34,918 nucleotides of DNA from Eubacteriales Family XIII. Incertae Sedis bacterium (GCA_031281765.1 JAITEX010000067.1:1-34918), one strand, 5' to 3'; positions 6,076-22,678 are shown, numbered from the stretch's first letter. The notes: generated by a model not told the origin, from the sequence alone. Made by a program: numbers and translations.

Positions 6076-6222
6076 GGTCTGCCTCCGTTACTATAGGGAT
6101 GTGAACCCGCGGCCGAAAACGGCGCGGCGGGGTTTTGCTTGTTGTGGGCCTTTGTGGAGCCGGTTGTTGTGGCTTTGCGTATGGTGATGATAAAATTATA
6201 CGTATAAGAGAAAGGAATAGCA

Positions 6223-6293
6223 ATGCACAGGGGGACGGTTCCCTTGTGTCGGATTGTATACAATTTAGCACAGCGGAACCGTCCCCTTGTGTT
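6223..6293. repeat. Nested-palindromic repeat element, copy 1 (5' UTR of the aminopeptidase gene)
   Basis: atgcacagggggacggttcccttgtg-tcgga-TTGTATACAA-tttag-cacagcggaaccgtccccttgtgtt. The arms are inverted repeats of each other around a palindromic core. Confidence 0.85.
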
Positions 6294-6306
6294 AAAAAGG
6301 GGAAAT

Positions 6307-8346
6307 ATGGAGAATAATAGAGTGATAATGGGTCGGCTCGCGGCCCTGCGCGACGCGATGCGCGCGGCGGGGCTTGACGCCTACCTCGTCTTCGACGCGG
6401 ATACGGTCGGGAGCGAATCCCCCGCGGAGCGCTTTCTGACGCGCACCTGGCTGACGGGGTTTGACGGCTCGGCCGGCTGCGCCGTTATCACGGCAAACGA
6501 AGCGCGGCTGTGGACGGACGGGCGCTACTGGCTTCAGGCTGAGAAGCAGCTTGCCGGTACGGGCATAGAGCTGATGCGATCGGGCAAAGCCGGCGTACCG
6601 AAGCCGGAAGAATTTTTAGCGGCGGCTCTGCACGCCGGGGATGCGGTCGGCGTCTGCGGGGAGACTTTTCCCGCCGCGGAGTACGACGGGCTTGCGGCGG
6701 CGCTGCAGCCGCAGGGCATAGCGGTACGCGCAACCGAAGATTTGTTTGAGAAACTCTGGACAGTAAACCGGCCGGAGATGCCGACGGGAGAGATATTTTT
6801 GCTGGAGGACGCAGCGCGGGCAAAAGGCGCGGGCGCGGCGACGGGCGCAGAAGATATGCACAGGGGGACGGTTCCCTTGTGCGATTTTGTATACAATTCA
6901 ACACAGCGGAACCGTCCCCCTGTGTTGAACGCGGCGGCGCGAAATCTGGCAGCCGTGCGGGCTGAACTGAAGAAGCGCGGCGCCGACTATGCGCTTATAA
7001 CGGACCTCGCGTCGGTCGCGTGGCTCTTCGGGTTCCGCGGCTCTGACATCCTGTGTACGCCGGTTGCCTACGCGCGCGCCCTCGTATCGCAGAGCGACGC
7101 CATTCTCTTTATCGACAATGCGAAAGTCCCTGCGGATGTCTTGTCAAGCCTGGAGATTGACGGGGTTGCCGTCAGGGATTTCGGAGGCATGGAGCATAGT
7201 CTGCGCGGGCTTGCGCCCGGAACGCGCCTTACCTATGACCCTGATACCGTCAGCGCTGCTCTGCGAAATTCCTTAGCCGCCGACATCACGCGTATTGAAG
7301 CGCCCGACCCCGTCCTGCTCCTCAAGTCCCTGAAGACGGACGAAGAAATTGGGAACCTGCGACGCTGCCACGAACGCGACGGCAGGGTTATGGTGCGTTT
7401 TCTCATATGGCTGGAGGAGTCCGCGGGAAAGATAACCGAATACGACGCGGCCGGTAAGCTGACGGAATTGCGGGCCGAAGACCCGCTCAGCCTCGGGGAT
7501 TCGTTCGAGCCGATATGCGCATATGGCGCGAACGGGGCCATCGTTCATTATCATGCGGAGCCGGACAGCGCCGCGGTAATTGGTGAGAGGACATATGCAC
7601 AGGGGGACGGTTCCCTTGAGCAATTTTGTATACAATTTAACACAGTGGAACCGTCCCCCTGTGTCGGCGGTCGTCGTACGGAGCCGGACAGCGCCGCGGG
7701 ACTCGGCGAGGCGGGGTTCTTTGTGACGGACAGCGGCGGGCAGTATGTGGACGGGACGACGGATATTACGCGGACCGTGCTGTTGGGGGATAGTGGCGAC
7801 AGCGCCCGCCGCGACTATACCCTCGTACTGAAAGCCCATATCGCCCTCGCCTCGGTCGAGTTCCGCCACGGAGTGGCGGGAGCGCATCTCGATGCGCTCC
7901 CGCGGCGCGTCCTCTGGCGCGAAGGCGTAGACTACGCGCACGGTACGGGACACGGCGTCGGGTACGTACTCGGCGTACATGAGACGCCGCCAGGCTTCAC
8001 CTCTTCGGCGAATGCGGGCTCCGGCGCCCGGACGCCCATAGAACCGAATATGGTCTTTTCAAATGAACCCGGTCTCTACCGCGCCGGCGCCTATGGCATT
8101 CGCATCGAAAACCTCGTGACGCCCTACGTTTCGCGGGAAAACGAATTCGGCAGGTTCCTGAAGCTCGAGACCCTCTCGCTCTGCCCCATCGATCTCACGC
8201 CCGTCATTGCTGAAATGCTGACAATAGATGAAATAGAATGGTTGAACGCCTACCACCGCGAAGTCTACGCGCGCCTCGCCCCCGGCCTTACGGAAACGGA
8301 ACGCCGCTGGCTTGCTTCGCGCACCCGCGAAATATCGACCCCTTGA
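6307..8346 (+). CDS. Xaa-Pro aminopeptidase (M24B, aminopeptidase P family) with two in-frame repeat insertions
   Basis: Creatinase-like N-domains plus an M24 catalytic domain (DSGGQY..GTTDITRT, HGTGHGVG, SNEPGLY, IRIEN). ATG at 6307 (MENNRVIMGRL) with RBS AAAGGGGA. The ORF-track start at 6223 lies inside repeat copy 1. Confidence 0.9.
   Translation: MENNRVIMGRLAALRDAMRAAGLDAYLVFDADTVGSESPAERFLTRTWLTGFDGSAGCAVITANEARLWTDGRYWLQAEKQLAGTGIELMRSGKAGVPKPEEFLAAALHAGDAVGVCGETFPAAEYDGLAAALQPQGIAVRATEDLFEKLWTVNRPEMPTGEIFLLEDAARAKGAGAATGAEDMHRGTVPLCDFVYNSTQRNRPPVLNAAARNLAAVRAELKKRGADYALITDLASVAWLFGFRGSDILCTPVAYARALVSQSDAILFIDNAKVPADVLSSLEIDGVAVRDFGGMEHSLRGLAPGTRLTYDPDTVSAALRNSLAADITRIEAPDPVLLLKSLKTDEEIGNLRRCHERDGRVMVRFLIWLEESAGKITEYDAAGKLTELRAEDPLSLGDSFEPICAYGANGAIVHYHAEPDSAAVIGERTYAQGDGSLEQFCIQFNTVEPSPCVGGRRTEPDSAAGLGEAGFFVTDSGGQYVDGTTDITRTVLLGDSGDSARRDYTLVLKAHIALASVEFRHGVAGAHLDALPRRVLWREGVDYAHGTGHGVGYVLGVHETPPGFTSSANAGSGARTPIEPNMVFSNEPGLYRAGAYGIRIENLVTPYVSRENEFGRFLKLETLSLCPIDLTPVIAEMLTIDEIEWLNAYHREVYARLAPGLTETERRWLASRTREISTP
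6856..6926. repeat. Nested-palindromic repeat element, copy 2 (inside the aminopeptidase CDS, translated)
   Basis: atgcacagggggacggttcccttgtg-cgatt-TTGTATACAA-ttcaa-cacagcggaaccgtccccctgtgtt. Translated as MHRGTVPLCDFVYNSTQRNRPPVL. Confidence 0.85.
7556..7699. mobile_element. In-frame insertion module: repeat copy 3 (core 7595-7664) bounded by 21-bp direct repeats
   Basis: cggagccggacagcgccgcgg occurs at 7556-7576 and again at 7679-7699, offset 123 bp = 41 codons. The core atgcacagggggacggttcccttgag-caatt-TTGTATACAA-tttaa-cacagtggaaccgtccccctgtgt lies between them. Confidence 0.75.
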
Positions 8347-8371
8347 CAAATAAAATCCATGCGCGTATAAT
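8343..8371 (+). promoter_or_regulatory. Sigma-A consensus promoter of the NifX-GNAT/ABC/NifDK-like-1 operon
   Basis: TTGACA (8343-8348), 17-nt spacer, TATAAT (8366-8371). The -35 overlaps the aminopeptidase stop codon. Confidence 0.75.
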
Positions 8372-8391
8372 AATTTCATAATACATAGGTA

Positions 8392-8410
8392 ACATATATA
8401 TTTTATATGC
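8392..8410. promoter_or_regulatory. AT-palindrome operator, site A
   Basis: ACATATATA-T-TTTATATGC, 16/18 arm positions matching the palindrome ACATATATA-N-TATATATGT. Starts 21 nt downstream of the -10. Confidence 0.65.
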
Positions 8411-8424
8411 ATTACTGATCGGAC

Positions 8425-8469
8425 AACCGAAGGCAACGCTACCAGTGGCAGTGCTTTCGGTTTTTTATT
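8425..8469 (+). terminator. Intrinsic terminator-like hairpin + T-tract inside the operon leader (or the aminopeptidase terminator)
   Basis: aaCCGAAGGCA-(16 nt)-TGCTTTCGGtt followed by TTTTTTATT. It sits between the consensus promoter at 8343 and the RBS/ATG at 8482. Confidence 0.6.
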
Positions 8470-8481
8470 GAGAAGGGAAAG

Positions 8482-9339
8482 ATGAGTTACAAAATCGCGT
8501 TTGCAAGTTCTGACGGAATACATATCGATCGCCATTTGGGCGAGGCTAAGACATTGACGATCCTGACAATAGGCGAGACAAAGAGCGTCACGACAGAAGT
8601 TTTGACAACGACGCTTGCGCCGGGCTCCGGAGGACGGGATGCTTCGCATCCCCATGCGCACGCGCACGTCAACCTTGCGCCCCTTTTAGATTGTGAATTT
8701 GTCGTGGCGCAGAAGATCGGACGCGAAATGTCCAAAGCGCTTTTGCGCAACAATATCTCCGCTATTGAACAGACGGGATCCATCGAGGAGGCGGCAACGG
8801 GCATCATCAAATTTAAGGAAACGCAGGAAAGGCGCCGGCATATAAGCAGGGATGACCTTGTCGTGGAAAAGGCGCACCCGCATGAATTGAATCAAATATC
8901 CGCCATCTATGTTCGGGCCCGCGTCAGGATGAACGAAAACGGCATCTACCAGTGGGATGAAAGATACCCGTTCGAAGAGATTACCCGGGCGGACATCAGT
9001 AATGGAAAGCTCTACATCCTCAAATTGAACGACAGGATCATCGGGGCGGCGACCCTTAACGATAGCTTGGAGTTCCCGGACGCGACGGAACTTGAGCAGG
9101 TTTATGTCATCCACCGGTTTTGCATCGACCCCGATTTTCAGAAGCGCGGCTTTGCCCGGCGCTTTCTCTTCTCCCTCTTTGAAATCGCACAAAGGGAGGG
9201 TATACATGAGATACACTTGGCCGTCGCGGAGCAGAACTTCATTGCGATAAGCTCATACCGGAAAGCCGGGTTTCGAAACCTTGAGCGCATGGATACAGGC
9301 GGGTTCGGCTATTTTCTGCATATGGCACGGAAGATATAG
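8482..9339 (+). CDS. Fusion protein: NifX/NifB-C-terminal-like (FeMo-cofactor-binding family) domain + GNAT N-acetyltransferase
   Basis: N-terminal ~115 aa (YKIAFASSDGIHIDRHLGEAKTLTI...VVAQKIGREMSKALLRNNISAIE) resembles the dinitrogenase FeMo-co biosynthesis (NifX/NafY/NifB-C) fold. The C-terminal ~160 aa has GNAT motif A (HRFCIDPDFQKRGFARRFL). One continuous ORF with RBS AGAAGGGAAAG. Confidence 0.8.
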   Translation: MSYKIAFASSDGIHIDRHLGEAKTLTILTIGETKSVTTEVLTTTLAPGSGGRDASHPHAHAHVNLAPLLDCEFVVAQKIGREMSKALLRNNISAIEQTGSIEEAATGIIKFKETQERRRHISRDDLVVEKAHPHELNQISAIYVRARVRMNENGIYQWDERYPFEEITRADISNGKLYILKLNDRIIGAATLNDSLEFPDATELEQVYVIHRFCIDPDFQKRGFARRFLFSLFEIAQREGIHEIHLAVAEQNFIAISSYRKAGFRNLERMDTGGFGYFLHMARKI

Positions 9340-9348
9340 GAGGGCTAC

Positions 9349-10047
9349 ATGGGAGAGAAATATTTTCGGTGGGATTATGTTCTGGATTATTTTCCGAAGC
9401 TGTTTGAAAAGCTTCCGGTCACCTTGTCCATCGTACTGATGGCGACTCTGTTCGGCAGCATTATCGCCGTATTCGTCGCCTTTATACGGCTTGAACGCAT
9501 ACCCGTCCTGAATCAGCTTTGCGTCGTATTTGTCTCCTTTATGCGCAGTACACCCATTATCGTGCAGATGTTTCTGCTTTTCTTCGGCTCTGTGATGATC
9601 TTCAACACTCTGTTCGGCATCAATATCATCACCTATAACAAAATCTGGTTTGTCTACGCAGCCTATGCGCTGAATCTGAGCGGGTTCATGGCCGAAATAT
9701 TCCGCGGCGCCATCCTCGGCGTCCCGAAAAAACAGATGGACGCAGCTATCTCTGTCGGCCATAACAGGCGTCAAGCGTATCTGCATATCATCATTCCGCA
9801 GGCGGCCGTCATCGCGTTGCCCACACTCGGTTATACGATTGTCGCGTTGCTGCAGGACTCAACGCTGGCTTTCACCTTCGGCATCATCGATGTCATCGGG
9901 GCAATCAACGGAGTGTCCGCCTCTACGGGCCACAAGCTCGAAGGCTACTTCGACGCCGCCTTTATGTTCGCTATACTCGCGATCCTCGTTGAGAAACTGT
10001 TCGGATTCTTGGAGAAAAAAACAACCCACCAGTCGAGAATCACATGA
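9349..10047 (+). CDS. Polar amino-acid ABC transporter permease (His/Glu/Gln/Arg/cystine-type)
   Basis: 232 aa, multi-TM, with an EAA-like loop (MAEIFRGAILGVPKKQMDAAISVG). RBS AGGAGGG 9 nt after the preceding stop. Confidence 0.9.
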   Translation: MGEKYFRWDYVLDYFPKLFEKLPVTLSIVLMATLFGSIIAVFVAFIRLERIPVLNQLCVVFVSFMRSTPIIVQMFLLFFGSVMIFNTLFGINIITYNKIWFVYAAYALNLSGFMAEIFRGAILGVPKKQMDAAISVGHNRRQAYLHIIIPQAAVIALPTLGYTIVALLQDSTLAFTFGIIDVIGAINGVSASTGHKLEGYFDAAFMFAILAILVEKLFGFLEKKTTHQSRIT

Positions 10048-10110
10048 CCGCAACCCGGAGTGTGTCTCAAATATATGAAGTTGCGTTTTATTGAAAGAAA
10101 GGAAAGTATC

Positions 10111-10944
10111 ATGAAAACGAAAATAACGAAAATTCTCATTGGCCTGCTGACGCTGAGTCTGTTGTTTGCTGTCGGCTGTTCAAAGTCGAACGACAAGGAC
10201 AGCGGCGAGGCAACCGACGGAGAAAAGACGAAGCTGATCGTCAGTTCGCAGCCGGGCGAGTACCCCCCGCTTATCTACGTGAATGAAAACGGGGAAAATG
10301 ACGGCATAGACTTCCGCATAATCAAGGCTTTGCAGGAGGAATTGCCACAGTACGAATTCGAAGTCGTTGCGCAGGATATGGCGACGACGCTGACCGCGCT
10401 CGATTCAGGAACAGTGGATGTGGGGCTCTGCATGTTCGAGTACAATGAACAGCGCGCCGAGAAATACGTCTACTCCGATGTCGGCTATATGGAATACGGT
10501 CAGTACATCGTCGTGCCGAAGGGCAATCCCCTCGGTATCAAGTCGCTCGACGATCTGGGCGGCAAACGCGTCAGCACCTACCCGTCATCCAATACCGCGT
10601 TTATTCTCGAGGATTATAACGCAAATCACCCGGACAACCAGATAGAGATCGTCTATGTGGCCGCAACGGACGCAATCCGCAAGGGCCTGCAAAGCGGAGA
10701 TACGGACGCGACGCTTTCGACCAAATGGGGCGTTGATCTGGAAGTTGCGCAGTTTGGCGACTATGAGGAGATTGCGGGCGAATCCATCTGGCCAGGCCAG
10801 GCCTATGTCCTCTTCCCGCGCACAAACGAAAACAAGCAAGTACAAGCGGACGTGAACGCCGCGCTCAAACGGCTTGTCGATTCCGGAGAAGCGCAGCGCA
10901 TCTACGACAACCTGCTTGAGGAATGGAAGGCGACCTTGAAATAG
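10111..10944 (+). CDS. Amino-acid ABC transporter substrate-binding lipoprotein (PBP type 3 family)
   Basis: Signal peptide with lipobox LLFAVGC. ATG at 10111 (MKTKITKIL) with RBS GAAAGGAAAG preferred over 10060. Periplasmic-binding-protein-like sequence. Confidence 0.85.
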   Translation: MKTKITKILIGLLTLSLLFAVGCSKSNDKDSGEATDGEKTKLIVSSQPGEYPPLIYVNENGENDGIDFRIIKALQEELPQYEFEVVAQDMATTLTALDSGTVDVGLCMFEYNEQRAEKYVYSDVGYMEYGQYIVVPKGNPLGIKSLDDLGGKRVSTYPSSNTAFILEDYNANHPDNQIEIVYVAATDAIRKGLQSGDTDATLSTKWGVDLEVAQFGDYEEIAGESIWPGQAYVLFPRTNENKQVQADVNAALKRLVDSGEAQRIYDNLLEEWKATLK

Positions 10945-10968: not shown

Positions 10969-11682
10969 ATGTCAACCGTATTTGATTTTGATTTTTTTAT
11001 AGAATGCCTTAAGTCGGGCGCGGCGCGGATTCCGGTAAATCTTTACGTGGCCGCGGCGTCGGTATTCTTCGGAATGATATTCGGACTCATTATCGCGCTC
11101 ATACGGGTATTCCGGGTGCCGGTGCTGTCACCGATTTTCCGCTGGCTGGTCACCATACTAAAGGGCGTTCCTGTCATTCTTATGTTGCTCGTCTTCTATG
11201 TTCTCGCAGCGGATTACTTCAATTTAATTATGGAGTATTTCGGAATCGACTACACCTTTCGTCAGTTGAACAAGGCGATTATCGCTATAATCGCCTTGTC
11301 CGTCCTTTCATCCATAGGGCTTTCCGAGTCCTTCCGCGGCGCGCTCGCATCGGTGAAGAAGGGACAGTATGACGCGGCCTATTCCGTCTGGCTTACGAAG
11401 CGGCAGGCCCTCGTTTACGTCATTATACCGCAGGCCTTCCCTATCGCCGTACCGACGCTCTGCAATTATATTATCGGGATGATCAAGGCCGGCGCGCTCG
11501 CCGCTATGATTTCGGTTGTAGACATCATGAACGGCGCGCTCATCCCTGCCAACGCGAACTATCGATACCTCGAAGGGTACACGGCAGCCGCGTTGATTTA
11601 TTGGGTTGTTTGCGCGACGCTCGAAAAGGTATTGAATATCGCGGAAAAACGTTTCGCGAGCAAAGTAAGGGAGGTTGCTTAA
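10969..11682 (+). CDS. Polar amino-acid ABC transporter permease (second subunit)
   Basis: 237 aa, multi-TM, with an EAA-like loop (LSESFRGALASVKKGQYDAAYSV). Confidence 0.9.
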   Translation: MSTVFDFDFFIECLKSGAARIPVNLYVAAASVFFGMIFGLIIALIRVFRVPVLSPIFRWLVTILKGVPVILMLLVFYVLAADYFNLIMEYFGIDYTFRQLNKAIIAIIALSVLSSIGLSESFRGALASVKKGQYDAAYSVWLTKRQALVYVIIPQAFPIAVPTLCNYIIGMIKAGALAAMISVVDIMNGALIPANANYRYLEGYTAAALIYWVVCATLEKVLNIAEKRFASKVREVA

Positions 11683-12440
11683 TGATAGAGGTAAAGGGGC
11701 TGAAAAAGGCCTTTGGGCAAAACCAGGTACTCAAAGGGGTGGGCTTCCACGTCAATGAAGGGGATGTTATGACGCTGCTCGGCGTGAGCGGTTCGGGGAA
11801 AACGACGCTCATTCGTTGCCTGAATTATTTGGAGAGCCCCGACGAAGGGGTGATCCGCATCGATGACCGGACGGTGGACGCGCAGAAAATCACCAAGAAG
11901 GAAATCATCGAACTGCGGAAAAAGACCGCTATGGTTTTCCAGACCTACGACTTGTTCCTGAACCTGAACGCCCTGCAAAATGTTACGGAAGGGCTTATCC
12001 GGGGCGGCAAAATCCCGAAGCCGGACGCGGAGGATATTGCGCGTGATTTGCTTGAAAAAGTGGGGCTGTCCGCAAAATTGGAAAGCAAGCCCTATCAGCT
12101 TTCGGGCGGCGAACAGCAGCGTGTCGGGATAGCGCGCGCGCTCGCGCTCTGCCCTAAGGTCATCCTGTTTGACGAGCCGACTTCGGCGCTGGACCCGGAG
12201 GTGATCGGCGAGATATTGGATATTATCAAGGCGGTGGCGCGGAGCGGCGTTACCATGATTATCGTGACGCACGAGATGGAATTCGCGTTTAGCGTTTCCA
12301 ATAAGGTAGTCTTTATCGATCAGGGGGAAATCGTGGAGGAAGGGTCGCCGCGCGAGGTATTTCTGGAATCCAGTCAGGAACGCACGAAATCCTTCTTAGC
12401 CCGGTCGAATTTCCGGTTCCAACCGGAATATTATTTGTAA
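11682..12440 (+). CDS. Amino-acid ABC transporter ATP-binding protein
   Basis: Walker A GVSGSGKTT, signature LSGGEQQRVGIARAL, Walker B ILFDEPTSALD. The ATG at 11682 overlaps the permease stop (TAATG). The ORF-track start at 11601 is rejected. Confidence 0.92.
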   Translation: MIEVKGLKKAFGQNQVLKGVGFHVNEGDVMTLLGVSGSGKTTLIRCLNYLESPDEGVIRIDDRTVDAQKITKKEIIELRKKTAMVFQTYDLFLNLNALQNVTEGLIRGGKIPKPDAEDIARDLLEKVGLSAKLESKPYQLSGGEQQRVGIARALALCPKVILFDEPTSALDPEVIGEILDIIKAVARSGVTMIIVTHEMEFAFSVSNKVVFIDQGEIVEEGSPREVFLESSQERTKSFLARSNFRFQPEYYL

Positions 12441-12452
12441 AGGAGTAGCAAC

Positions 12453-13949
12453 ATGGGTACAATCAACATCGATGCCGGCACGGTCCCTATCCGGGAAACG
12501 CGGTTAGGCTCCATAACGGGGTATTATGGCGACCTGGAGGATCTGTCGACCAAGTCCTCCTGCGGGAATTTGAAGAACAGGGAACGCTGCTTCAGCCAAT
12601 GCAGCCTCTGCCTGAATATGTGTTCCATCGGGGAGTTCACCTCGCTGCGCGATGTGGCGGTCATCAACCACGCGCCCGCCGGGTGCAATGCGGGCTCCGC
12701 AGCCACCAAGGTGTTTGCCAAACAGATAGCGGAACGCATCGGCAAGGAGTATAATTCCGTGCTGGTCGGAACTGACCTCAATGAGAGTGACACCGTATTC
12801 GGCGCCACAGAATCGCTCCCGGACATCGTCCGACAGGTATATGAGAATTATCGTCCGAGCGCTATAGTAATCGCCTCCTCCTGCGTAAGCGGCGTCATAG
12901 GCGAGGACATCGAAAGCGTCACGAGCGAATTGGACAGACAATACGACATACCCATCTTCCCGATACAGTGTGAAGGCTTCCGCTCAAAGATTTGGCAGTC
13001 GGGCGCGGACATCGCCGACCACGCCTTTGTCAAATACATTGTCAAACCGCCGCAGGAGAAACGCAATGTAATCAATTTCAAGAACTTCTTTGAAAGCGAG
13101 CGTCAGCAGATCACGGAGATTTTTGCGGAGCTGGGTGTGACGCCCCAATTCCTCTATCTCAATTCCACGATTGAGGAGGTCGAACATCTTTCGGAATCCC
13201 TTGCGACGGTCAGCATCTGCGGCACGCTTGGCACCTATCTCGGCAACGCCCTCGAAGAACTTTACGGCGTACCTTATATCCGCAGCCTCAACCCGAACGG
13301 CATCACGGGATTCGAAAGCTGGCTTCGCGAGATAGGCAAAAAGATAGGGAAAAGCGCGGAGGTTGAGAACTATCTCACGCGTGAGAAGGCCAAGTATATC
13401 GATAAAATCGAGGAAGTGAAGGACGAACTGAAGGGGCTGACCGCCGTCATCGGCATGGGCCCCGGCTATGCTTTCGATGTGGGACGCGTTTTGCAGGAAT
13501 TGGGGCTTGAAATCATCTGGACGACTGCCTGGCACCTTGACTATCGTTACGACAACGGGGAAATGCCGACGTCCTTGCGCTATATGACGGAACACTCCGC
13601 AAATAATTTCGGCGTAAGCGTAGCGGATCAGCAGAATTTCGAGATAATGCATACGCTGAAGACGTTGAAGCCGGATGTCTATTTCTCGCGCCATCCGGGA
13701 ACCACGGTATGGGCGGTCAAACAAGGCATTGCATCCGTATTCGTCGCGGATGAGTATACGATATTCGGGTATCGCGGCACCTTGAATTTTGCCAATATGA
13801 TACTTGACGCGGTGCGCAACCGCAGTTTTGAACAGAACCTTGCCGCGCGGACGAAGCTGCCGTACACGGACTGGTGGTACGAGCAGAACAATCAGGCGAT
13901 GCTTTTGAATGAGGGCGAAACCAGACTGCGCGAGGCGGCGGCCCACTAG
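12453..13949 (+). CDS. Nitrogenase component-1 alpha-like subunit (NifD/NifE-like), paralog 1
   Basis: NHAPAGC, ASSCVSGVIGEDIESV and IQCEGFRSK parallel NifD HGPVGC, SECPIGLIGDDIESV and VRCEGFRG. VSICGTLGTY parallels the cofactor-Cys segment LVHCYRSMNY. RBS AAGGAG. Confidence 0.85.
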   Translation: MGTINIDAGTVPIRETRLGSITGYYGDLEDLSTKSSCGNLKNRERCFSQCSLCLNMCSIGEFTSLRDVAVINHAPAGCNAGSAATKVFAKQIAERIGKEYNSVLVGTDLNESDTVFGATESLPDIVRQVYENYRPSAIVIASSCVSGVIGEDIESVTSELDRQYDIPIFPIQCEGFRSKIWQSGADIADHAFVKYIVKPPQEKRNVINFKNFFESERQQITEIFAELGVTPQFLYLNSTIEEVEHLSESLATVSICGTLGTYLGNALEELYGVPYIRSLNPNGITGFESWLREIGKKIGKSAEVENYLTREKAKYIDKIEEVKDELKGLTAVIGMGPGYAFDVGRVLQELGLEIIWTTAWHLDYRYDNGEMPTSLRYMTEHSANNFGVSVADQQNFEIMHTLKTLKPDVYFSRHPGTTVWAVKQGIASVFVADEYTIFGYRGTLNFANMILDAVRNRSFEQNLAARTKLPYTDWWYEQNNQAMLLNEGETRLREAAAH

Positions 13950-13969: not shown

Positions 13970-15277
13970 ATGGCACAGATATTGGATCAACCGAGATATA
14001 AATGCGCTCTTGCGGCAATGCAGACCGTACACGCCATTCCGCGGGCCATACCCATCCTGCACGCGGGTCCGGGGTGCGGCACGAAACTGAACGACAATAC
14101 CGGCATCTCAGGGTATTATTCACCGAATATATTTCCGAGCACGAATATCGGCGAAAAGGAGGTGGTCTTCGGTGGCGAGGGCAAACTGCGAACCACCATC
14201 GAAAACGCGCTGAAAATAATTGACGCCGACCTCTTTGTTGTGCTGACCGGCTGCACGGCCGAGATCATAGGGGATGACGCCGAAGAAATCGTACACGAAT
14301 TTGCGGACGCGGGGAAGCGCGTCATCTACGTGAACACCCCCGGGTTCAAGGGGTCGAATTATCAAGGGCACGATTGGGTACTGACCGCCCTTTTCGAGCA
14401 GTATCTACCGCGCGAACGCGTCCCCGTAAACGCGAAGCAGGTGAACATATTCCCGGGGCCTCCGGTGCAGGATCCCTTTTGGCACGGCAACCTGAAGGAG
14501 CTGGAATCCCTGTTCCGCGAAATCGGCCTTGAGCCGAATATCATCTTCGGCTATGGCAACGGCGTTTCGGCCGTCGACCGCATACCGGCAGGCGCTTTCA
14601 ATATCCTCGTCTCGCCGTGGGTCGGCCTGGACAGCGTCAAGGTCCTCGAAAAGAAATACGGGACGCCGTACCTGCATTATCCCGTGCTGCCGATCGGCGC
14701 GACGGAGACGAGCAAGTTCCTCCGCGCCGTAGGGAAATTCACGAAGGTTGACGAGCTTCATGTCGAGCGCGTCATCGCCGAACATGAGAAGGAATATTAT
14801 TACTTTATCGAACGCTATTCGGATACCTTTCTCGAGCTGAGGATACTCTCCAAACGCTTCGTCGTCATATCCGACGCGCAGTACGCGATTGCCGCGACAA
14901 AGTTCCTCGTCAACGACCTCGGCTGGAACCCGGGCGGTACGCAGTTCGTTACGGACAACACGCCGGAGGAATACCGCGAAAGCGTCCGCTCCGAATTTGA
15001 AAAGCTCAATTACGGCATCAAGGCGTCGATGGAATTTTCGACAAACGGGTTTGAGATACAAAAGAAGATCAGGGAATCCGGATTTACCGCGCCGCCGATG
15101 ATCTTCGGCAGCAGTTGGGATAAGAGCTTCGCAAAGGAGATATATGCCCCCTTCCTGAACATCTCCTATCCTACGTATGACCGGCTCATCATCAACAGCG
15201 GCGTGGTCGGCTACGCCGGCGGCCTTAAGTTCCTGGAAGACATTTATACCACGGCGGTGCAGTCGCTTATTCTGTAA
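13970..15277 (+). CDS. Nitrogenase component-1 beta-like subunit (NifK/NifN-like), paralog 1
   Basis: YKCALAAM, HAGPGCG and LTGCTAEIIGDD parallel the three NifK P-cluster Cys motifs (ACQPLGA, HGSQGC, TTCMAEVIGDD). RBS GGGGGAGGAAGAGG. Confidence 0.85.
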   Translation: MAQILDQPRYKCALAAMQTVHAIPRAIPILHAGPGCGTKLNDNTGISGYYSPNIFPSTNIGEKEVVFGGEGKLRTTIENALKIIDADLFVVLTGCTAEIIGDDAEEIVHEFADAGKRVIYVNTPGFKGSNYQGHDWVLTALFEQYLPRERVPVNAKQVNIFPGPPVQDPFWHGNLKELESLFREIGLEPNIIFGYGNGVSAVDRIPAGAFNILVSPWVGLDSVKVLEKKYGTPYLHYPVLPIGATETSKFLRAVGKFTKVDELHVERVIAEHEKEYYYFIERYSDTFLELRILSKRFVVISDAQYAIAATKFLVNDLGWNPGGTQFVTDNTPEEYRESVRSEFEKLNYGIKASMEFSTNGFEIQKKIRESGFTAPPMIFGSSWDKSFAKEIYAPFLNISYPTYDRLIINSGVVGYAGGLKFLEDIYTTAVQSLIL

Positions 15278-15343: not shown

Positions 15344-15394
15344 GCGTATAAGAACGCGGTATAAATAACAGGCATGCCCGCGCGGGAGTACGCT

Positions 15395-15964
15395 ATGAGC
15401 AAAAAAGAGGAAATTATCGGGACGACCATCGATCTGTTCAAACGTGAAGGCTGTGAAAACGCGACGATACAGCGGATTTGCGAGGTCAACAAAATCACGA
15501 AAGGTACGTTCTATTATCATTTCAAGTCCAAGGGCGATCTTATCTATGCCTTCTTTGAATTGCAGGGCAACAGTATCCTGAGTATCTTCCCTCACATTGT
15601 AGCGGAGACCGACGACAGGAAGAAGATATGGATCGCCTACGAGTTTTGGCTCGATATGATGCTGCAGCTCGGGGAAAAATTGCTCCACGGCCTCTTTGTT
15701 TTCGAATATGAGAACGGTTTCGATTTCTTCTCGCCCTACCCGCGCATCCCCCGCGGCAACCTGCCCGACCCCTATAATATGATTATTGAACTTATCAAAA
15801 GCGCGCAGGCGTCCGGCGCTATTCGCAACAACGCGCCGCATGAACGCCTTATCATCACCCTGAACGCCATGATGACCACCATCCTGATGGATTGGTCCGC
15901 AGGCGGCCGCGACTACGATCCGAAAGAGGAAATACGCGCGGGGTTCGACGCTATTCTCAATTAA
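15395..15964 (+). CDS. TetR/AcrR-family transcriptional regulator
   Basis: N-terminal HTH: IIGTTIDLFKREGCENATIQRICEVNKITKGTFYYHFKSKGDL. ATG at 15395 with GGGAG RBS preferred over 15374. Confidence 0.88.
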   Translation: MSKKEEIIGTTIDLFKREGCENATIQRICEVNKITKGTFYYHFKSKGDLIYAFFELQGNSILSIFPHIVAETDDRKKIWIAYEFWLDMMLQLGEKLLHGLFVFEYENGFDFFSPYPRIPRGNLPDPYNMIIELIKSAQASGAIRNNAPHERLIITLNAMMTTILMDWSAGGRDYDPKEEIRAGFDAILN

Positions 15965-16085: not shown

Positions 16086-16976
16086 ATGGCGAAAAACGGC
16101 AAAGCGATCAAGCAGATTGCGATTTACGGCAAAGGGGGTATCGGCAAATCGACCACCACCTCGAACCTGAGCGCGGCATTGGCCGATCTCGGCTATAAGG
16201 TCATGCAATTCGGGTGTGACCCGAAAGCGGACTCCACGAATACCTTACGGGACGGTTCATATATTCCTACCGTGTTGGAACTATTGCGGGACCGGGGCAG
16301 CGTAAACGCCCACGACGCGATTTTTGTGGGATACAACGGCATATACTGCGTGGAGGCCGGCGGCCCGGCGCCCGGCGTGGGGTGCGCGGGGCGCGGTATC
16401 ATCACCGCGGTGCAATTGCTGAAAGAACAGGATATTTTCGAAGAACTCGATTTGGACTATGTGATCTACGACGTCCTCGGCGACGTTGTCTGCGGCGGCT
16501 TCGCGGTGCCCATCCGGGAGGGTATTGCGCAGCACGTCTTTACGGTTTCGTCCTCGGATTTTATGGCCATATACGCCGCCAACAATCTGTTCAAGGGCAT
16601 CCAGAAATATTCGAACTCGGGAGGCGCCCTCCTCGGCGGCATTATCGCGAACTCCGTTTCACCCGAATCCAATTATCAGCGATCCATTATCGACGATTTC
16701 GCCGCACGGACAAGCACGCAGATCATGCAATATATCCCCCGTTCCGTTACGGTGACCCAGAGCGAACTTTCGGGAAAGACGACCATAGAGGCCGCGCCGG
16801 ATTCCGCTCAGGCCAAGGTGTACCGCGAACTCGCGCGCCGCATCGACGAGCATGTCGACTCCAAGACGCCAACGCCTTTGGAACCTTCGCAATTGCGCGA
16901 CTGGGCCGCAGAATGGTCCGACCAGATACTCGCCATCGAAACCGGCGAGGTCCGCACGGAAGCGGCCAACATCTAA
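16086..16976 (+). CDS. NifH-like ATPase / Fe-protein (nitrogenase iron protein family)
   Basis: [18 protein letters not shown] (Walker A), GCDPKADST (switch I), and [4Fe-4S] Cys in [12 protein letters not shown] and [17 protein letters not shown] at 16086 with RBS AAAGGGA. Confidence 0.92.
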
Positions 16977-18391: not shown

Positions 18392-19678
18392 TTACAGATT
18401 GTTGAACAGGTCCTCAACGAGGGTTATCGCGCCGCGGTATCCGCTATAGGTGCGGTTGAGAATCAGCTGGTCGGTGATGGGATACGCCGCAACGAATATC
18501 TGCGCGTCACGATTGAAGGCGATTTCCCGTTCCAATGAACTGCCGACAAACAGCGAGACGTCGTTATACTCGTCGAGGGCCCGGCCCACATCGTAATTAT
18601 CGGTGGCAAAGACGACATCCGGCCCTTTGACATATTCGAGATCCTGTATCCGGTCCCGTATAGCCGCCTTATCCGCTTCGCGTGACACCGGTTCGGTCAC
18701 CACGGTGACCACCGGGGTGAACCCGAGGTCGTTCGCGAGCGCGTGCGTCATGCCTATCGCCACATTGGCGTCCCCGATGACGGCGAATTTCTTCCACGAC
18801 AGAGCGCCGATGGCCGTTTCGTAATAATTATAGACGTAAGACTCCTCCTCGTAGATGACATCCTCGACGAGTTTGCCGTCTATAGCAAGCGCGTCCGCAA
18901 CCTGCCGGACGAGGCGCGTCGTATCGGTCGCGCCGACCGGCAGCCCCGGGAAACGGAGGCTCGGCACGCCGAACCTCTTTTCAAATTTCCTTGCCTCGCC
19001 TTGCAGGAGCCACGGATTGACTATGACGTTCAGCGCCGCCGCGCCGGCATTTTTTATATGTTCAATGCCCTGGCCGTGCGAGAAGAAGGTATTCACCTCC
19101 AGACCGAGCTTGGAAAAGATGCGCACTAATTCCTCAAACGTGCCCGCCCAATAGGGGTCATGATAGGGGAAGATGCCGAGCAGGTTGATGAGATTGGCCT
19201 GCCTGGGCCGCCCCGGCTCCACGAGCTGGCTCAGGAAGGTGGATATGGTCGTTTCGTATCCGAGGTTGCTGTCCCCCGCAAACCCCGGCGTGGGGATGTT
19301 ATAGACCGGGAAGCCTTCCGCGCGGAACCCCTTCGCCACCGTCTCCGTATCATCGCCGATAATGCCCGATGTGCAGCCGTTGAGGATGAAGTAGGCGTCC
19401 GCGTCGATAATGTCGATACTGCCGCGAATCGTATCGGTGAGTTTTTCAATGCCGCCAAACACCACCTCGCGTTCGAGCATAAGCGAGCAGGGAAGGGACA
19501 CGCTCGAGAGGAAATGCGGCGACTTGAGTCCCGCCTGCCCCGCTTCCCCCGCGCTGGTCTGGAGTCCGCATCCGGGTCCCGAATGAAAGATCGGGCAGAA
19601 TTTGTTGACGGCTGACAGGGTGCTGTTGATGCCGCCGAGTACGCAGCTGCCCCGGGGGTTCTCGGTAACGATGGACAT
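18392..19678 (-). CDS. Nitrogenase component-1 beta-like subunit (NifK/NifN-like), paralog 2
   Basis: GSCVLGG, HSGPGCG and LNGCTSGIIGDD give all three NifK-type P-cluster Cys motifs. The start lies 1 nt after the NifD-like-2 stop. Confidence 0.85.
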   Translation of the reverse strand: MSIVTENPRGSCVLGGINSTLSAVNKFCPIFHSGPGCGLQTSAGEAGQAGLKSPHFLSSVSLPCSLMLEREVVFGGIEKLTDTIRGSIDIIDADAYFILNGCTSGIIGDDTETVAKGFRAEGFPVYNIPTPGFAGDSNLGYETTISTFLSQLVEPGRPRQANLINLLGIFPYHDPYWAGTFEELVRIFSKLGLEVNTFFSHGQGIEHIKNAGAAALNVIVNPWLLQGEARKFEKRFGVPSLRFPGLPVGATDTTRLVRQVADALAIDGKLVEDVIYEEESYVYNYYETAIGALSWKKFAVIGDANVAIGMTHALANDLGFTPVVTVVTEPVSREADKAAIRDRIQDLEYVKGPDVVFATDNYDVGRALDEYNDVSLFVGSSLEREIAFNRDAQIFVAAYPITDQLILNRTYSGYRGAITLVEDLFNNL

Positions 19679-19679
19679 A

Positions 19680-21131
19680 TTAGATTACCTCCTTTATAAA
19701 CTTGAACGGGTCTTCGTCATACCAGCTCTCGCGATACGGCAGGCGCGCATACTTCGACAGCTTCTTGTTGAATCCCGGGTTTTCGATTTGGGCCGCGATC
19801 TTATTCCCCAGCCACACGATGCCGTCATAGCCCATAGTCGGCCGTTTCGGATCCAGAATATGCGTGGTCGGAATGCCGAACCTCGACGACCAGGAGGGTA
19901 CGCCGATAAAGACGTCCGGTTTCAGTTTGTTCACTATATTTACCTGTTCAAAGGGCAGCATATTGGCGACGTCGATGAGGTAATCCCCGTGAATATCGTT
20001 CAGAAACGCTATGTCGTCCTGAGCGTCAAGGTCGTAGACGGGCGTTTCAATGCCGAGCAGTTTCATGCCGAAATCATCGATAAGGGTGGCCGCCGCGAAC
20101 GAACGGCCCGTGCCGCCGCAGATAAACACCGACTTGCCCTGTAGCTTCAGCTTGATCTTGTCCAATTCCGGCTGAATGCGCGCGTGTTCGGTGGCGATGA
20201 TCTCTTCGACTTCATCCCCCTTGCCGGTGATCTCGGCAATGGCGCGATACCACTTATCCGTATTGCGTATTCCCACCGGCATCACCGTATGGGCGTAAGG
20301 AATGCCGAAGTCATGTTCGATGTCCTTCATAAACTCATCGGCGAACACCTTGCAGATGGACGTGGACGCTTCGGCGTTCGGTATATTCAGAACTTTGTCA
20401 TAGTCGCTGAAGAAGGGCAAAAAGTTGCTCTTCAATCCTATCCTCCGCAGCAATTTTTCTATTTCGAGCTGATCCGCGAAGCTCACCGTCATCGGCGCGA
20501 AGAGATTGATAAGGCCCTTCTCCTTCTTCGGGACCGCGCCTTTTAACACGAATTTCGATATGGCGATAAAAGCGGCGTCGTACCCGGAAGCGCAGATTTT
20601 CGACCGAAAACCGTCGCAGTGCACGGGGACGATGAGCGCCTCCGTATCCGGCTGCGCCTCGCGGACGATGGCGTCAACATCATCGCCTATTATACCGGAA
20701 GCGCAGGAGGTGAACACGAAAATCAGCTTTGGCTTGTACCGTTCGGACGCAAGCCGGATGGATTCGCGCAGCTTCCCCTCGCCTCCCATAATGACGTCGC
20801 TCTGATCGAGGTTTGTTATGAGGATCTTCGGTGACGTGATTTTCTCGGCGCCGCGATGGATCTGCGCGACACGGTACATATCCGCCCCCATGGTGATACA
20901 CCCGACACAGCCCTGCGGCGCGTGCGCGATGAGCACGGCGTCATTGACCGAAAGTAACGCGGATATGCTGTTCAGCTCCTGGCATTGATAGCTCTGGCTG
21001 AACGTGCGATCAGCGTTCTTAATACATTTCTTCTTGAAATCCTGCTCGATTTGCAGACTGCTGCCCGCAAGATCGAGATACGTATCGGTGTATTCGCGTT
21101 GTTCCCGAATACCGGAATAGGTTCTTGGCAT
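19680..21131 (-). CDS. Nitrogenase component-1 alpha-like subunit (NifD/NifE-like), paralog 2
   Basis: HAPQGC, FTSCASGIIGDDVDAIV, VHCDGFRSK, STSICKVFADEF (cofactor-Cys position) and GIPTTHILD (candidate His). The ATG at 21131 (MPRTYSG) follows a GGGAGGAG RBS, so the ORF-track start at 21149 is rejected. Confidence 0.85.
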   Translation of the reverse strand: MPRTYSGIREQREYTDTYLDLAGSSLQIEQDFKKKCIKNADRTFSQSYQCQELNSISALLSVNDAVLIAHAPQGCVGCITMGADMYRVAQIHRGAEKITSPKILITNLDQSDVIMGGEGKLRESIRLASERYKPKLIFVFTSCASGIIGDDVDAIVREAQPDTEALIVPVHCDGFRSKICASGYDAAFIAISKFVLKGAVPKKEKGLINLFAPMTVSFADQLEIEKLLRRIGLKSNFLPFFSDYDKVLNIPNAEASTSICKVFADEFMKDIEHDFGIPYAHTVMPVGIRNTDKWYRAIAEITGKGDEVEEIIATEHARIQPELDKIKLKLQGKSVFICGGTGRSFAAATLIDDFGMKLLGIETPVYDLDAQDDIAFLNDIHGDYLIDVANMLPFEQVNIVNKLKPDVFIGVPSWSSRFGIPTTHILDPKRPTMGYDGIVWLGNKIAAQIENPGFNKKLSKYARLPYRESWYDEDPFKFIKEVI

Positions 21132-21175
21132 CTTTCTCCTCCCATACATCCGTCTCCGTCAATATAGCCTAATTA

Positions 21176-22327: not shown

Positions 22328-22678
22328 ATGGCATATAGAGCTGCCTTTGCAACGAGCGACGGATTGACCGTTTACAAACACTTCGGACAAGCGAACGAAT
22401 ATCTCGTCGCCGACATCCTGGAAGACCATTATGAAATCGTAGCTCGCAGAAACGTAGTCCCTCCCTGCAACGCCCGCGGGCACTCGGAAGCGGCGTTCGA
22501 CGCGGTACTTGACGCCTTATCCGACTGTGAAGCCATTTTCGTCGGCAAGGTCGGAGTGGGAGCTGCGGAATACATCGCAAGCCGGGGTATAAACGTATTT
22601 GAAACCCCGGGTGTGATCGATGAGATTTTTTTAAAACAAAAATCGCAGGCGCCTCTTGATAAAAAACGGGATATATGA
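22328..22678 (+). CDS. NifX/NifB-C-terminal-like FeMo-cofactor-binding family protein
   Basis: MAYRAAFATSDGLTVYKHFGQANEYLV...IFVGKVGVGAAEYIASRGINVFE. ATG at 22328 with RBS GGAAGGTGA preferred over 22298. Confidence 0.8.
   Translation: MAYRAAFATSDGLTVYKHFGQANEYLVADILEDHYEIVARRNVVPPCNARGHSEAAFDAVLDALSDCEAIFVGKVGVGAAEYIASRGINVFETPGVIDEIFLKQKSQAPLDKKRDI

Follow-up and report, generated by a model that had tools for sequence, protein, structure and literature searches.

A 34,918-nucleotide stretch of DNA from an Eubacteriales Family XIII. Incertae Sedis bacterium (GCA_031281765.1 JAITEX010000067.1:1-34918; hereafter the window) carries, at positions 8482-9339, a genuine gene in which a NifX-like domain is fused to a GNAT acetyltransferase. 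It lies ahead of genes for an amino-acid-type importer and a nitrogenase-like reductase. We propose, at a probability of roughly one in three, that the fusion is a bifunctional accessory protein that would link cofactor handling or docking to the N-acetylation of an imported organosulfur amino acid. As part of this best explanation, we infer that the host system is a methylthio-alkane reductase (Mar)-like, Group IV nitrogen-fixation-like pathway for organosulfur salvage in a termite-gut Anaerovoracaceae/Family XIII bacterium. Both domain families are well known; the architecture is present but unrecognized in public genomes and is not categorically new.

An intact and selected fusion gene

The open reading frame (ORF) begins with an ATG, 6 nt downstream of a GAAGGGA ribosome-binding site, and encodes 285 residues without internal interruption, just as a sequence-only reading of this stretch had described it. 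That reading had divided the protein into a NifX-like N-terminal and a GNAT C-terminal domain, and a Pfam scan placed both halves above threshold: Nitro_FeMo-Co (PF02579) covers residues 12-107 and scores 39.5 bits where 26.3 are required, and Acetyltransf_1 (PF00583) covers residues 156-264 and scores 55 bits where 20.7 are required.

The metagenome-assembly source of the window is the sole reason to consider that a frameshift or a chimeric join merged two genes, and no support for such an artifact was found. An independent Logan contig, taken from a public metagenome run of termite gut, spans positions 8300-9500; it carries eight substitutions but neither an indel nor a joint, and it thereby crosses the region 8800-8880 where the sequence-only reading had allowed for a frameshift. 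Six of the eight substitutions fall within the ORF, every one of them synonymous. In addition, an orthologue of 291 residues from a different Joint Genome Institute (JGI) metagenome, 77% identical, keeps the reading frame, and permease, binding-protein, and permease genes come after it as they do in the window. Between the window gene and this orthologue, the NifX core has a ratio of nonsynonymous to synonymous substitution rates (dN/dS) of 0.05-0.06 and the GNAT domain one of 0.07, at a dS of ~1.2; constraint is relaxed in a loop at residues 45-64 (0.63) and in the linker at residues 111-128 (0.42). Given a second assembly with only synonymous differences in the gene, a syntenic 77% identical orthologue, and dN/dS values of 0.05-0.07 in the domains, the fusion is a real, selected two-domain gene with both domains intact, under purifying selection, and encoded as a single chain. 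Frameshift or misassembly, which we rejected on the same grounds, is exceedingly improbable.

This type of fusion is very rare, with two proteins among ~15 billion, and the orthologue is the only other protein with the window-type architecture among 5.8 billion protein clusters. Across 1.84 billion representative proteins, the two-stretch matches that were checked turned out to be tandem GNAT, tandem NifX, or other fusions, never NifX with GNAT. A scan of metagenome contigs did not meet the window-type fusion again and recovered only standalone NifX-like genes. The same was true of a genome scan, in which the standalone NifX-like genes were 28-31% identical (Clostridium puniceum, C. beijerinckii, and a Bacillota metagenome-assembled genome, MAG).

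The N-terminal domain keeps a cofactor-binding histidine

The AlphaFold2 model of the N-terminal domain (predicted local distance difference test, pLDDT, 71) found its best Foldseek match in Azotobacter vinelandii NifX (AvNifX; 9ian_F, the NifX chain of the NifEN-NifX complex; E 1e-6, template modeling score 0.69). Further matches were the NafY core (1p90), TM1290, TM1816, PH0822, MJ0327, and orange protein. When query residues 3-40 are aligned with chain residues 20-57, His18 of the fusion falls on His35 of AvNifX, and His18 is also present in the orthologue. A 2026 cryo-electron microscopy study found that His35 ligates an apical Fe of NifB-co, that AvNifX holds NifEN through its C-terminal tail, and that family members without this histidine (NifY, NafX) may be placeholders (PMC13128457). 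Modeling and alignment show a predicted NifX fold that keeps the histidine used to bind NifB-co in A. vinelandii. Over residues 4-108, NCBIfam returned partial, sub-threshold matches to nifX and to the NifB C-terminus; as the score against the NifX equivalog TIGR02663 (27.9 bits) lies below its cutoff (112), the fused domain should be regarded as a family member and not as an orthologue of nitrogenase NifX.

The place of this domain among its relatives can be judged from 80 related loci, in which the counterpart of the window's first NifD-like protein (NifD1) is 54-66% identical. Their hosts include Lachnospiraceae, Oscillospiraceae, Clostridium, and Treponema of termites and the rumen, and they share a recurrent layout: radical S-adenosylmethionine (SAM) gene, class A NifX, NifH, a CysK-like pyridoxal phosphate (PLP) enzyme, NifD1, NifK1, and class B NifX, followed by an amino-acid ATP-binding cassette (ABC) importer or a second NifDK pair. 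NifX-like genes are thus standard at two positions, behind the radical SAM gene and behind NifK1. Class A proteins have ~118 residues and bear the histidine; in class B proteins, of 135-155 residues, the histidine is replaced and a Cys/Gly-rich insert is present. The fused domain reached 73 bits with the class A profile and 61.5 bits with that of class B, while S10-D11-G12, G20, D70-C71, K78, and G80 are invariant among the fusions and the window's own standalone NifX. By these comparisons, the fused domain is a divergent third NifX type that keeps the histidine.

Compared with NifX, the NafY core, and the NifB C-terminal domain, the fused domain is alike in its PF02579 match, fold, histidine position, and its NifB-like and NifDK-type neighbors. 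It differs in being joined to a GNAT where AvNifX has its NifE-binding tail, in its divergence from both paralogue classes, and in its setting in a non-nitrogenase, Mar-like system; its binding of a cluster is a prediction.

The sequence-only reading had also drawn attention to a His-rich loop. The motif SHPHAHAHV is indeed present, within residues 45-64, but this is the least conserved part of the protein, with a dN/dS of 0.63 and a 6-residue indel in the orthologue that leaves only HAHA in common. Since it is not conserved, the loop is a poor candidate for a functional motif, and its variability together with predicted disorder (pLDDT below 50) leaves the idea of a conserved metal site unsupported. 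It sits where class B proteins carry their Cys/Gly-rich insert. In those proteins (L041, L060, L070, L073, and others; ~12760-13320, after NifK1), Lys, Asn, or Thr replaces the cofactor-binding histidine, and the insert of 20-60 residues is accompanied by a DCRCVxCKK motif. To judge from these sequence features, class B appears to be a so far undescribed version of the NifX fold that binds a cluster or sulfur.

The C-terminal domain is a GNAT of generic type

Motif A, which had been proposed from the sequence at the outset, was recovered as QKRGFA at residues 220-225 (Q220-K-R-G223-F-A225; coordinates 9139-9156), in agreement with the acetyl-CoA motif pattern Q/R-x-x-G-x-G/A, and Y259, G263, and F264 are conserved as Tyr259-x3-Gly-Phe. 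The top 50 Foldseek matches of the full-length AlphaFold2 model (pLDDT 73) were all GNATs, a mixture of small-molecule enzymes (PaiA, YncA/MnaT, ArsN, PAT) and protein acetyltransferases (RimI, HP0935). With its intact acetyl-CoA motif, the domain appears to be catalytically competent. The packing of the two domains against each other was set aside as uninterpretable at a predicted template modeling score (pTM) of 0.52.

NCBIfam gave only generic GNAT matches to the C-terminal half, including PaiA and RimI (TIGR01575, 36.7 bits against a cutoff of 86.4). RimI is also the name that JGI gives to the orthologue; the score lies below the TIGR01575 equivalog threshold. BLASTP between the window GNAT and YtmI (SnaA) of the Bacillus subtilis group produced no significant alignment, and the sole match was to a generic GNAT profile (46.9 bits), leaving orthology to B. 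subtilis SnaA unsupported.

These matches bear on whether the fusion might act on proteins. It is conceivable that the NifX-like domain aims the GNAT at the NifDK- or NifH-like proteins, and that acetylation of a lysine or the N-terminus would regulate the reductase or help it mature, much as nitrogenase is under post-translational control. Fusion of a docking-type domain to a GNAT is a common design of protein acetyltransferases, the NifX family has members that interact with NifEN- or NifDK-type proteins, and RimI and HP0935 are among the top family and fold matches. However, the RimI score is far under the family cutoff, the fold matches to small-molecule enzymes are equally good, and the M20D amidohydrolases and TcyK-like importer described below point to small N-acyl amino acids. 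We consider such a protein acetyltransferase switch quite unlikely, both in outline and in the proposed site and effect of acetylation.

A second, independent fusion in related loci

A second GNAT subfamily, recognizable by CFPxxEAA, WQMIFGV, and WYQM motifs, lies directly 3' of NifX or NifK in six of the related loci. L055 and L066 encode this GNAT on its own; L082 and L084 (Eubacterium uniforme ATCC 35992) have it joined to a class B NifX, and in the joined proteins both domains again score above the Pfam thresholds. This second fusion is represented by seven protein clusters (P0152-P0158). Domain order is identical in the two fusion types and linker length is similar, and both occur in the same family of nitrogenase-like clusters. 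They differ in that the E. uniforme-type gene, which is placed directly behind NifK1, has a class B N-terminal domain without the cluster-binding histidine and with a long Cys/Gly-rich insert, followed by a GNAT of the other subfamily (WQMIFGV...WYQM); these proteins are uncharacterized and annotated as RimI or GNAT only. Because the NifX paralogues differ and the two GNATs share no BLASTP similarity, the sequences indicate that the NifX::GNAT architecture had two origins or more, each with its own NifX paralogue and its own GNAT subfamily.

Adjacency in L055 and L066 and fusion in L082, L084, and P0152-P0158 support a functional link among NifX, GNAT, and reductase. To this extent, the coupling of the domains to the reductase complex that the sequence-only reading had suggested gains ground. 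That reading knew of no characterized fusion of the two domains, and we found no description of a NifX-GNAT fusion in the literature searched; the architecture is not unique, though, as the E. uniforme protein WP_078765928.1 demonstrates.

It might be argued that both fusions are incidental joinings of neighboring genes and that the domains work independently, with no physical or kinetic coupling. The occurrence of NifX and GNAT as separate adjacent genes, the rarity of both fusion types, and the short linker with its relaxed constraint would all fit this explanation. Two independent fusions from different NifX paralogues and unrelated GNATs, arranged in the same order with a similar linker length, would not, nor would the maintenance of the window fusion over a dS of ~1.2, and we regard this alternative as rather unlikely.

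Current annotation hides the NifX half of these proteins. At NCBI the second fusion goes under 'Ribosomal protein S18 acetylase RimI' or under 'GNAT family N-acetyltransferase'; in a number of RefSeq entries the model has been trimmed to the GNAT. The fusion of L084 (12859-13902), for example, appears at NCBI both as the 323-residue WP_078765928.1 and as a 176-residue, GNAT-only RefSeq entry (WP_242942999.1). Among the fetched loci, the closest standalone relative of the window GNAT is in L010 (7159-7683; Lachnoclostridium sp. UBA1308), where it is split by a single in-frame stop and lies between an ORF that looks, by its sequence, like a dipeptidase and the NifH-like gene downstream.

A Mar-like reductase and a standalone NifX

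The NifD1 protein matched the Rhodospirillum rubrum methylthio-alkane reductase structures 9FMG and 9D9U with an E of 1e-88. It keeps P-cluster residues C53, C78, and C144, and its C256, R413-H414, and W181 correspond to Cys270, Arg428-His429, and Trp195 of MarD, where Cys270 and Arg428-His429 are the mar2-cluster ligands (PMC13474568). Identity to MarD is 34.7%, whereas characterized Mar homologues share 52-65%. The window resembles MarBHDK (Group IV-C; R. rubrum and Rhodopseudomonas palustris) in its predicted sulfur assimilation context and in that NifD1 retains all P- and mar2-cluster ligands and Trp195, and it resembles R. palustris Mar2 in having a NifB-like maturase without a NifX domain and a separate NifX homologue. 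Unlike MarBHDK, whose MarD has a low identity to NifD1 as stated above, the window system has an amino-acid-type ABC importer instead of a link to volatile sulfides, and described Mar clusters are without a GNAT.

The second NifD-like protein of the window (NifD2, 19680-21149, paired with NifK2 at 18392-19678) keeps the P-cluster cysteines and Cys270. Arg428-His429 are gone through a 4-residue deletion and Cys replaces Trp195, and its best NCBIfam match is NifE. NifD2 may act as a scaffold, or it may be a paralogue that holds a cofactor of another kind.

The standalone NifX gene (22328-22675), whose product retains the HFG histidine and a loop cysteine, lies directly behind the NifB-like radical SAM gene. 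Because of it, the fused domain is an extra copy and not the sole carrier, and the idea that the fused domain is the only NifX of the cluster was ruled out. A NifX homologue was found to be essential for growth of R. palustris on dimethyl sulfide or dimethylsulfoniopropionate as sulfur source, which its authors took to imply a more complex trafficking of the Mar metallocofactor (bioRxiv 10.64898/2026.08.20.746119). This requirement makes a cofactor-related role for the fused domain credible.

A dedicated NifX beside the NifB-like gene also raises the possibility that the fused NifX fold is not a carrier and instead gates GNAT activity by cofactor, iron-sulfur, or small-molecule status. PF02579 proteins are widespread in organisms that do not fix nitrogen and bind various metal clusters, the fold matches from TM1290 to orange protein listed above are of interest in this respect, and the N-terminal domain of the second fusion type is without the histidine and has the Cys/Gly-rich insert. 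On the other hand, the known cluster-ligand position is kept under strong constraint as His18, and allosteric control of a GNAT by a NifX fold is without precedent in the literature searched. A sensor function of this kind seems doubtful to us.

Gene context points to organosulfur amino acids as possible substrates

The best solved relatives of the window's solute-binding protein are Lmo2349 (E 1e-27) and B. subtilis YtmK/TcyK (E 5e-26), both from operons in which a GNAT gene comes first. In the Bacillus locus, the GNAT YtmI (SnaA) comes first and is followed by an importer that includes YtmK, by monooxygenases, and by the YtnL deacetylase, and the scheme published for such clusters is acetylation, then C-S cleavage, then deacetylation (PMC12757645). 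The window parallels the SnaA and ScmL operons in gene order, with a GNAT at the head, a TcyK-type importer, and a candidate C-S cleavage enzyme.

M20D amidohydrolases that are 36-41% identical to Bacillus YtnL, a member of the N-acetylcysteine deacetylase family, stand among the ABC importer genes in ten related loci (L002, L012, L022, L024, L025, L026, L030, L031, L033, and L036). In most Lachnospiraceae loci, for example at 8975-9982 in L065, and at 8975-9973 in L084, the gene for the CysK-like PLP enzyme stands behind that for the NifH-like protein and ahead of NifD1. A rhodanese-ThiF/MoeB fusion is encoded downstream of the NifX::GNAT gene in L082, and a rhodanese-TtcA-like protein downstream of the GNAT gene in L040.

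Taken together, the window and the B. subtilis S-alkylcysteine clusters (ytmI/snaA-tcyJKLMN-monooxygenases-ytnL; scm/yxe) are alike in placing a GNAT first, in their polar-amino-acid importer, in a C-S-cleaving enzyme (in the window, a predicted one), and in the YtnL-like M20D deacetylases of the related nitrogenase-like loci. They are unlike in that flavin monooxygenases serve there, as opposed to a predicted oxygen-sensitive nitrogenase-like reductase in the window, in that the Bacillus GNAT is without a NifX domain and shows no detectable pairwise homology to the window GNAT, and in that the window is without a deacetylase. The parallel, drawn by analogy, is therefore one of shared logic and not of family membership. 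The gene context nonetheless supports, at the level of sequence, an amino-acid-type organosulfur substrate and N-acyl chemistry.

Gene organization of the window

The features of the window are compiled in Table 1. The fusion had initially been taken for the first gene of the importer and NifDK-like-1 operon, and the organization bears this out: a perfect sigma-70-type consensus promoter lies upstream, permease 1 starts 10 nt past the fusion stop codon, and the remaining ABC genes and NifD1 and NifK1 follow with gaps of at most 25 nt or with overlaps.

Table 1. Features of the window, in order of position
Feature	Position	Strand	Remarks
Promoter-like TTGACA-17 nt-TATAAT	8343..8371	+	12/12 matches; overlap with the end of the M24 peptidase gene upstream
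Strong hairpin followed by U-run, in ~100-nt leader	8425..8468	+	Minimum free energy -25.3 kcal/mol, z -2.6
NifX-like::GNAT fusion ORF, 285 residues	8482..9339	+	
NifX/NafY-type domain, residues 1 to ~118	8482..8835	+	PF02579, Foldseek, invariant columns
His18 codon, aligned with NifB-co ligand His35 of A. vinelandii NifX	8533..8535	+	Pairwise alignment
Gly/His-rich loop, residues 45-64, variable, predicted disordered	8614..8673	+	dN/dS, pLDDT
Inter-domain helical tail and linker, residues 111-128, relaxed constraint	8812..8865	+	dN/dS 0.42
GNAT acetyltransferase domain, residues ~125-285	8854..9336	+	PF00583, Foldseek
ABC permease 1 (BPD_transp_1)	9349..10047	+	Ribosome-binding site AGGAGG, overlapping the fusion gene at its end
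Solute-binding protein (SBP_bac_3)	10060..10944	+	Closest solved relatives Lmo2349 and B. subtilis YtmK (TcyK)
ABC permease 2	10969..11682	+	
ABC ATPase	11679..12440	+	Likely ATG start at 11679, overlapping permease 2 stop codon
NifD-like 1	12453..13949	+	34.7% identical to R. rubrum MarD
NifK-like 1	13970..15277	+	
TetR-family regulator	15374..15964	+	
NifH-like Fe protein	16086..16976	+	
Second NifD/NifK-like pair	18392..21149	-	NifD2 19680-21149, NifK2 18392-19678
NifB-like radical SAM protein without NifX domain, 300 residues	21399..22301	+	TIGR01290 234 bits, model positions 9-290 of 441
Standalone class A NifX-like gene, 115 residues	22328..22675	+	Directly 3' of NifB-like gene

The leader (8378-8481) contains an AT-rich imperfect palindrome (~8388-8416) and the strong hairpin, which is followed by six U. 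These structures may act as an attenuator or operator, or else terminate transcription of the gene upstream. Comparison of the leader with Rfam gave no match at the gathering threshold, nor at E values up to 5, and a riboswitch was rejected on this basis. Beyond the NifH-like gene, a MatE exporter is encoded on the opposite strand. The housekeeping serine hydroxymethyltransferase is 81% identical to that of a termite-gut Family XIII/Anaerovoracaceae MAG.

A palindromic element of ~77 nt is present in three copies (6216-6292, 6849-6925, and 7588-7664; CACAGGGGGACGGTTCCCTTGTG...TGTATACA...CACAGCGGAACCGTCCCCCTGTG). Two of the three lie inside the M24 aminopeptidase ORF (6223-8346) with the frame intact, where they add peptide inserts such as HRGTVPLC, and the third is flanked by a 37-nt direct repeat (7551-7587, 7674-7710). 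These elements resemble intragenic insertions of the miniature inverted-repeat transposable element (MITE) or repetitive extragenic palindrome (REP) kind.

Discussion

We favor a function for the fusion that would unite its two halves around an imported substrate. In this proposal, the NifX-like domain would bind a NifB-type 8Fe cluster or dock on NifD1K1 at the carrier site, and this binding or docking might place the GNAT at the reductase. There, the GNAT would use acetyl-CoA to N-acetylate an imported organosulfur compound resembling S-alkylcysteine. Acetylation would keep the compound out of translation and offer it for reductive C-S cleavage, after which a deacetylase could recover the amino acid. 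The whole route might be the anaerobic equivalent of the order of acetylation, cleavage, and deacetylation that underlies the scm, ytm, and yha clusters of B. subtilis.

Several observations weigh against this proposal. None of the nitrogenase-like enzymes of this clade has a known substrate. GNATs were found in only ~8 of ~85 related loci, and acetylation is therefore not a universal step. Because a standalone NifX is already present beside the NifB-like gene of the window, the fused copy may not carry a cofactor at all; moreover, it is without the loop cysteine typical of the class A paralogues, and the GNAT takes the place of the C-terminal tail by which AvNifX grips NifEN. The family matches of the GNAT are generic and it has no BLASTP similarity to SnaA/YtmI, so its substrate class cannot be read from its sequence. 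How the two domains are oriented toward each other is uncertain in the full-length model (pTM 0.52). Finally, no M20D deacetylase is encoded in the window.

A bolder version of the proposed function is that the fusion belongs to an unrecognized anaerobic pathway, in which a nitrogenase-like reductase would cleave the C-S bond of N-acetylated S-alkyl amino acids while the carrier fold tethers the GNAT for direct handover. We put this forward as a speculation that is rather unlikely to be right. If true, the GNAT and the M20D amidohydrolase would be the entry and exit steps of an 'acetylate-reduce-deacetylate' route in gut Clostridia and spirochaetes.

Most Group IV nitrogenase-like enzymes are without a known substrate, and a recent review sees in their gene context a loose link to sulfur metabolism and little else (PMC13474568). 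Our findings suggest that uncharacterized enzymes of this kind might act on N-acetylated, amino-acid-type sulfur compounds. The recurring partnership of NifX and GNAT, seen in two fusions, together with the TcyK-like importers and YtnL-like deacetylases, provides a candidate substrate class for a large Firmicutes and spirochaete clade, namely N-acetylatable sulfur amino acids. With Eubacterium uniforme ATCC 35992, a cultured organism that carries a fusion is available and suited to testing this idea. The value of the fusion may thus lie in its use as a Rosetta-stone clue to the substrate class of a widespread and uncharacterized clade of nitrogenase-like enzymes.

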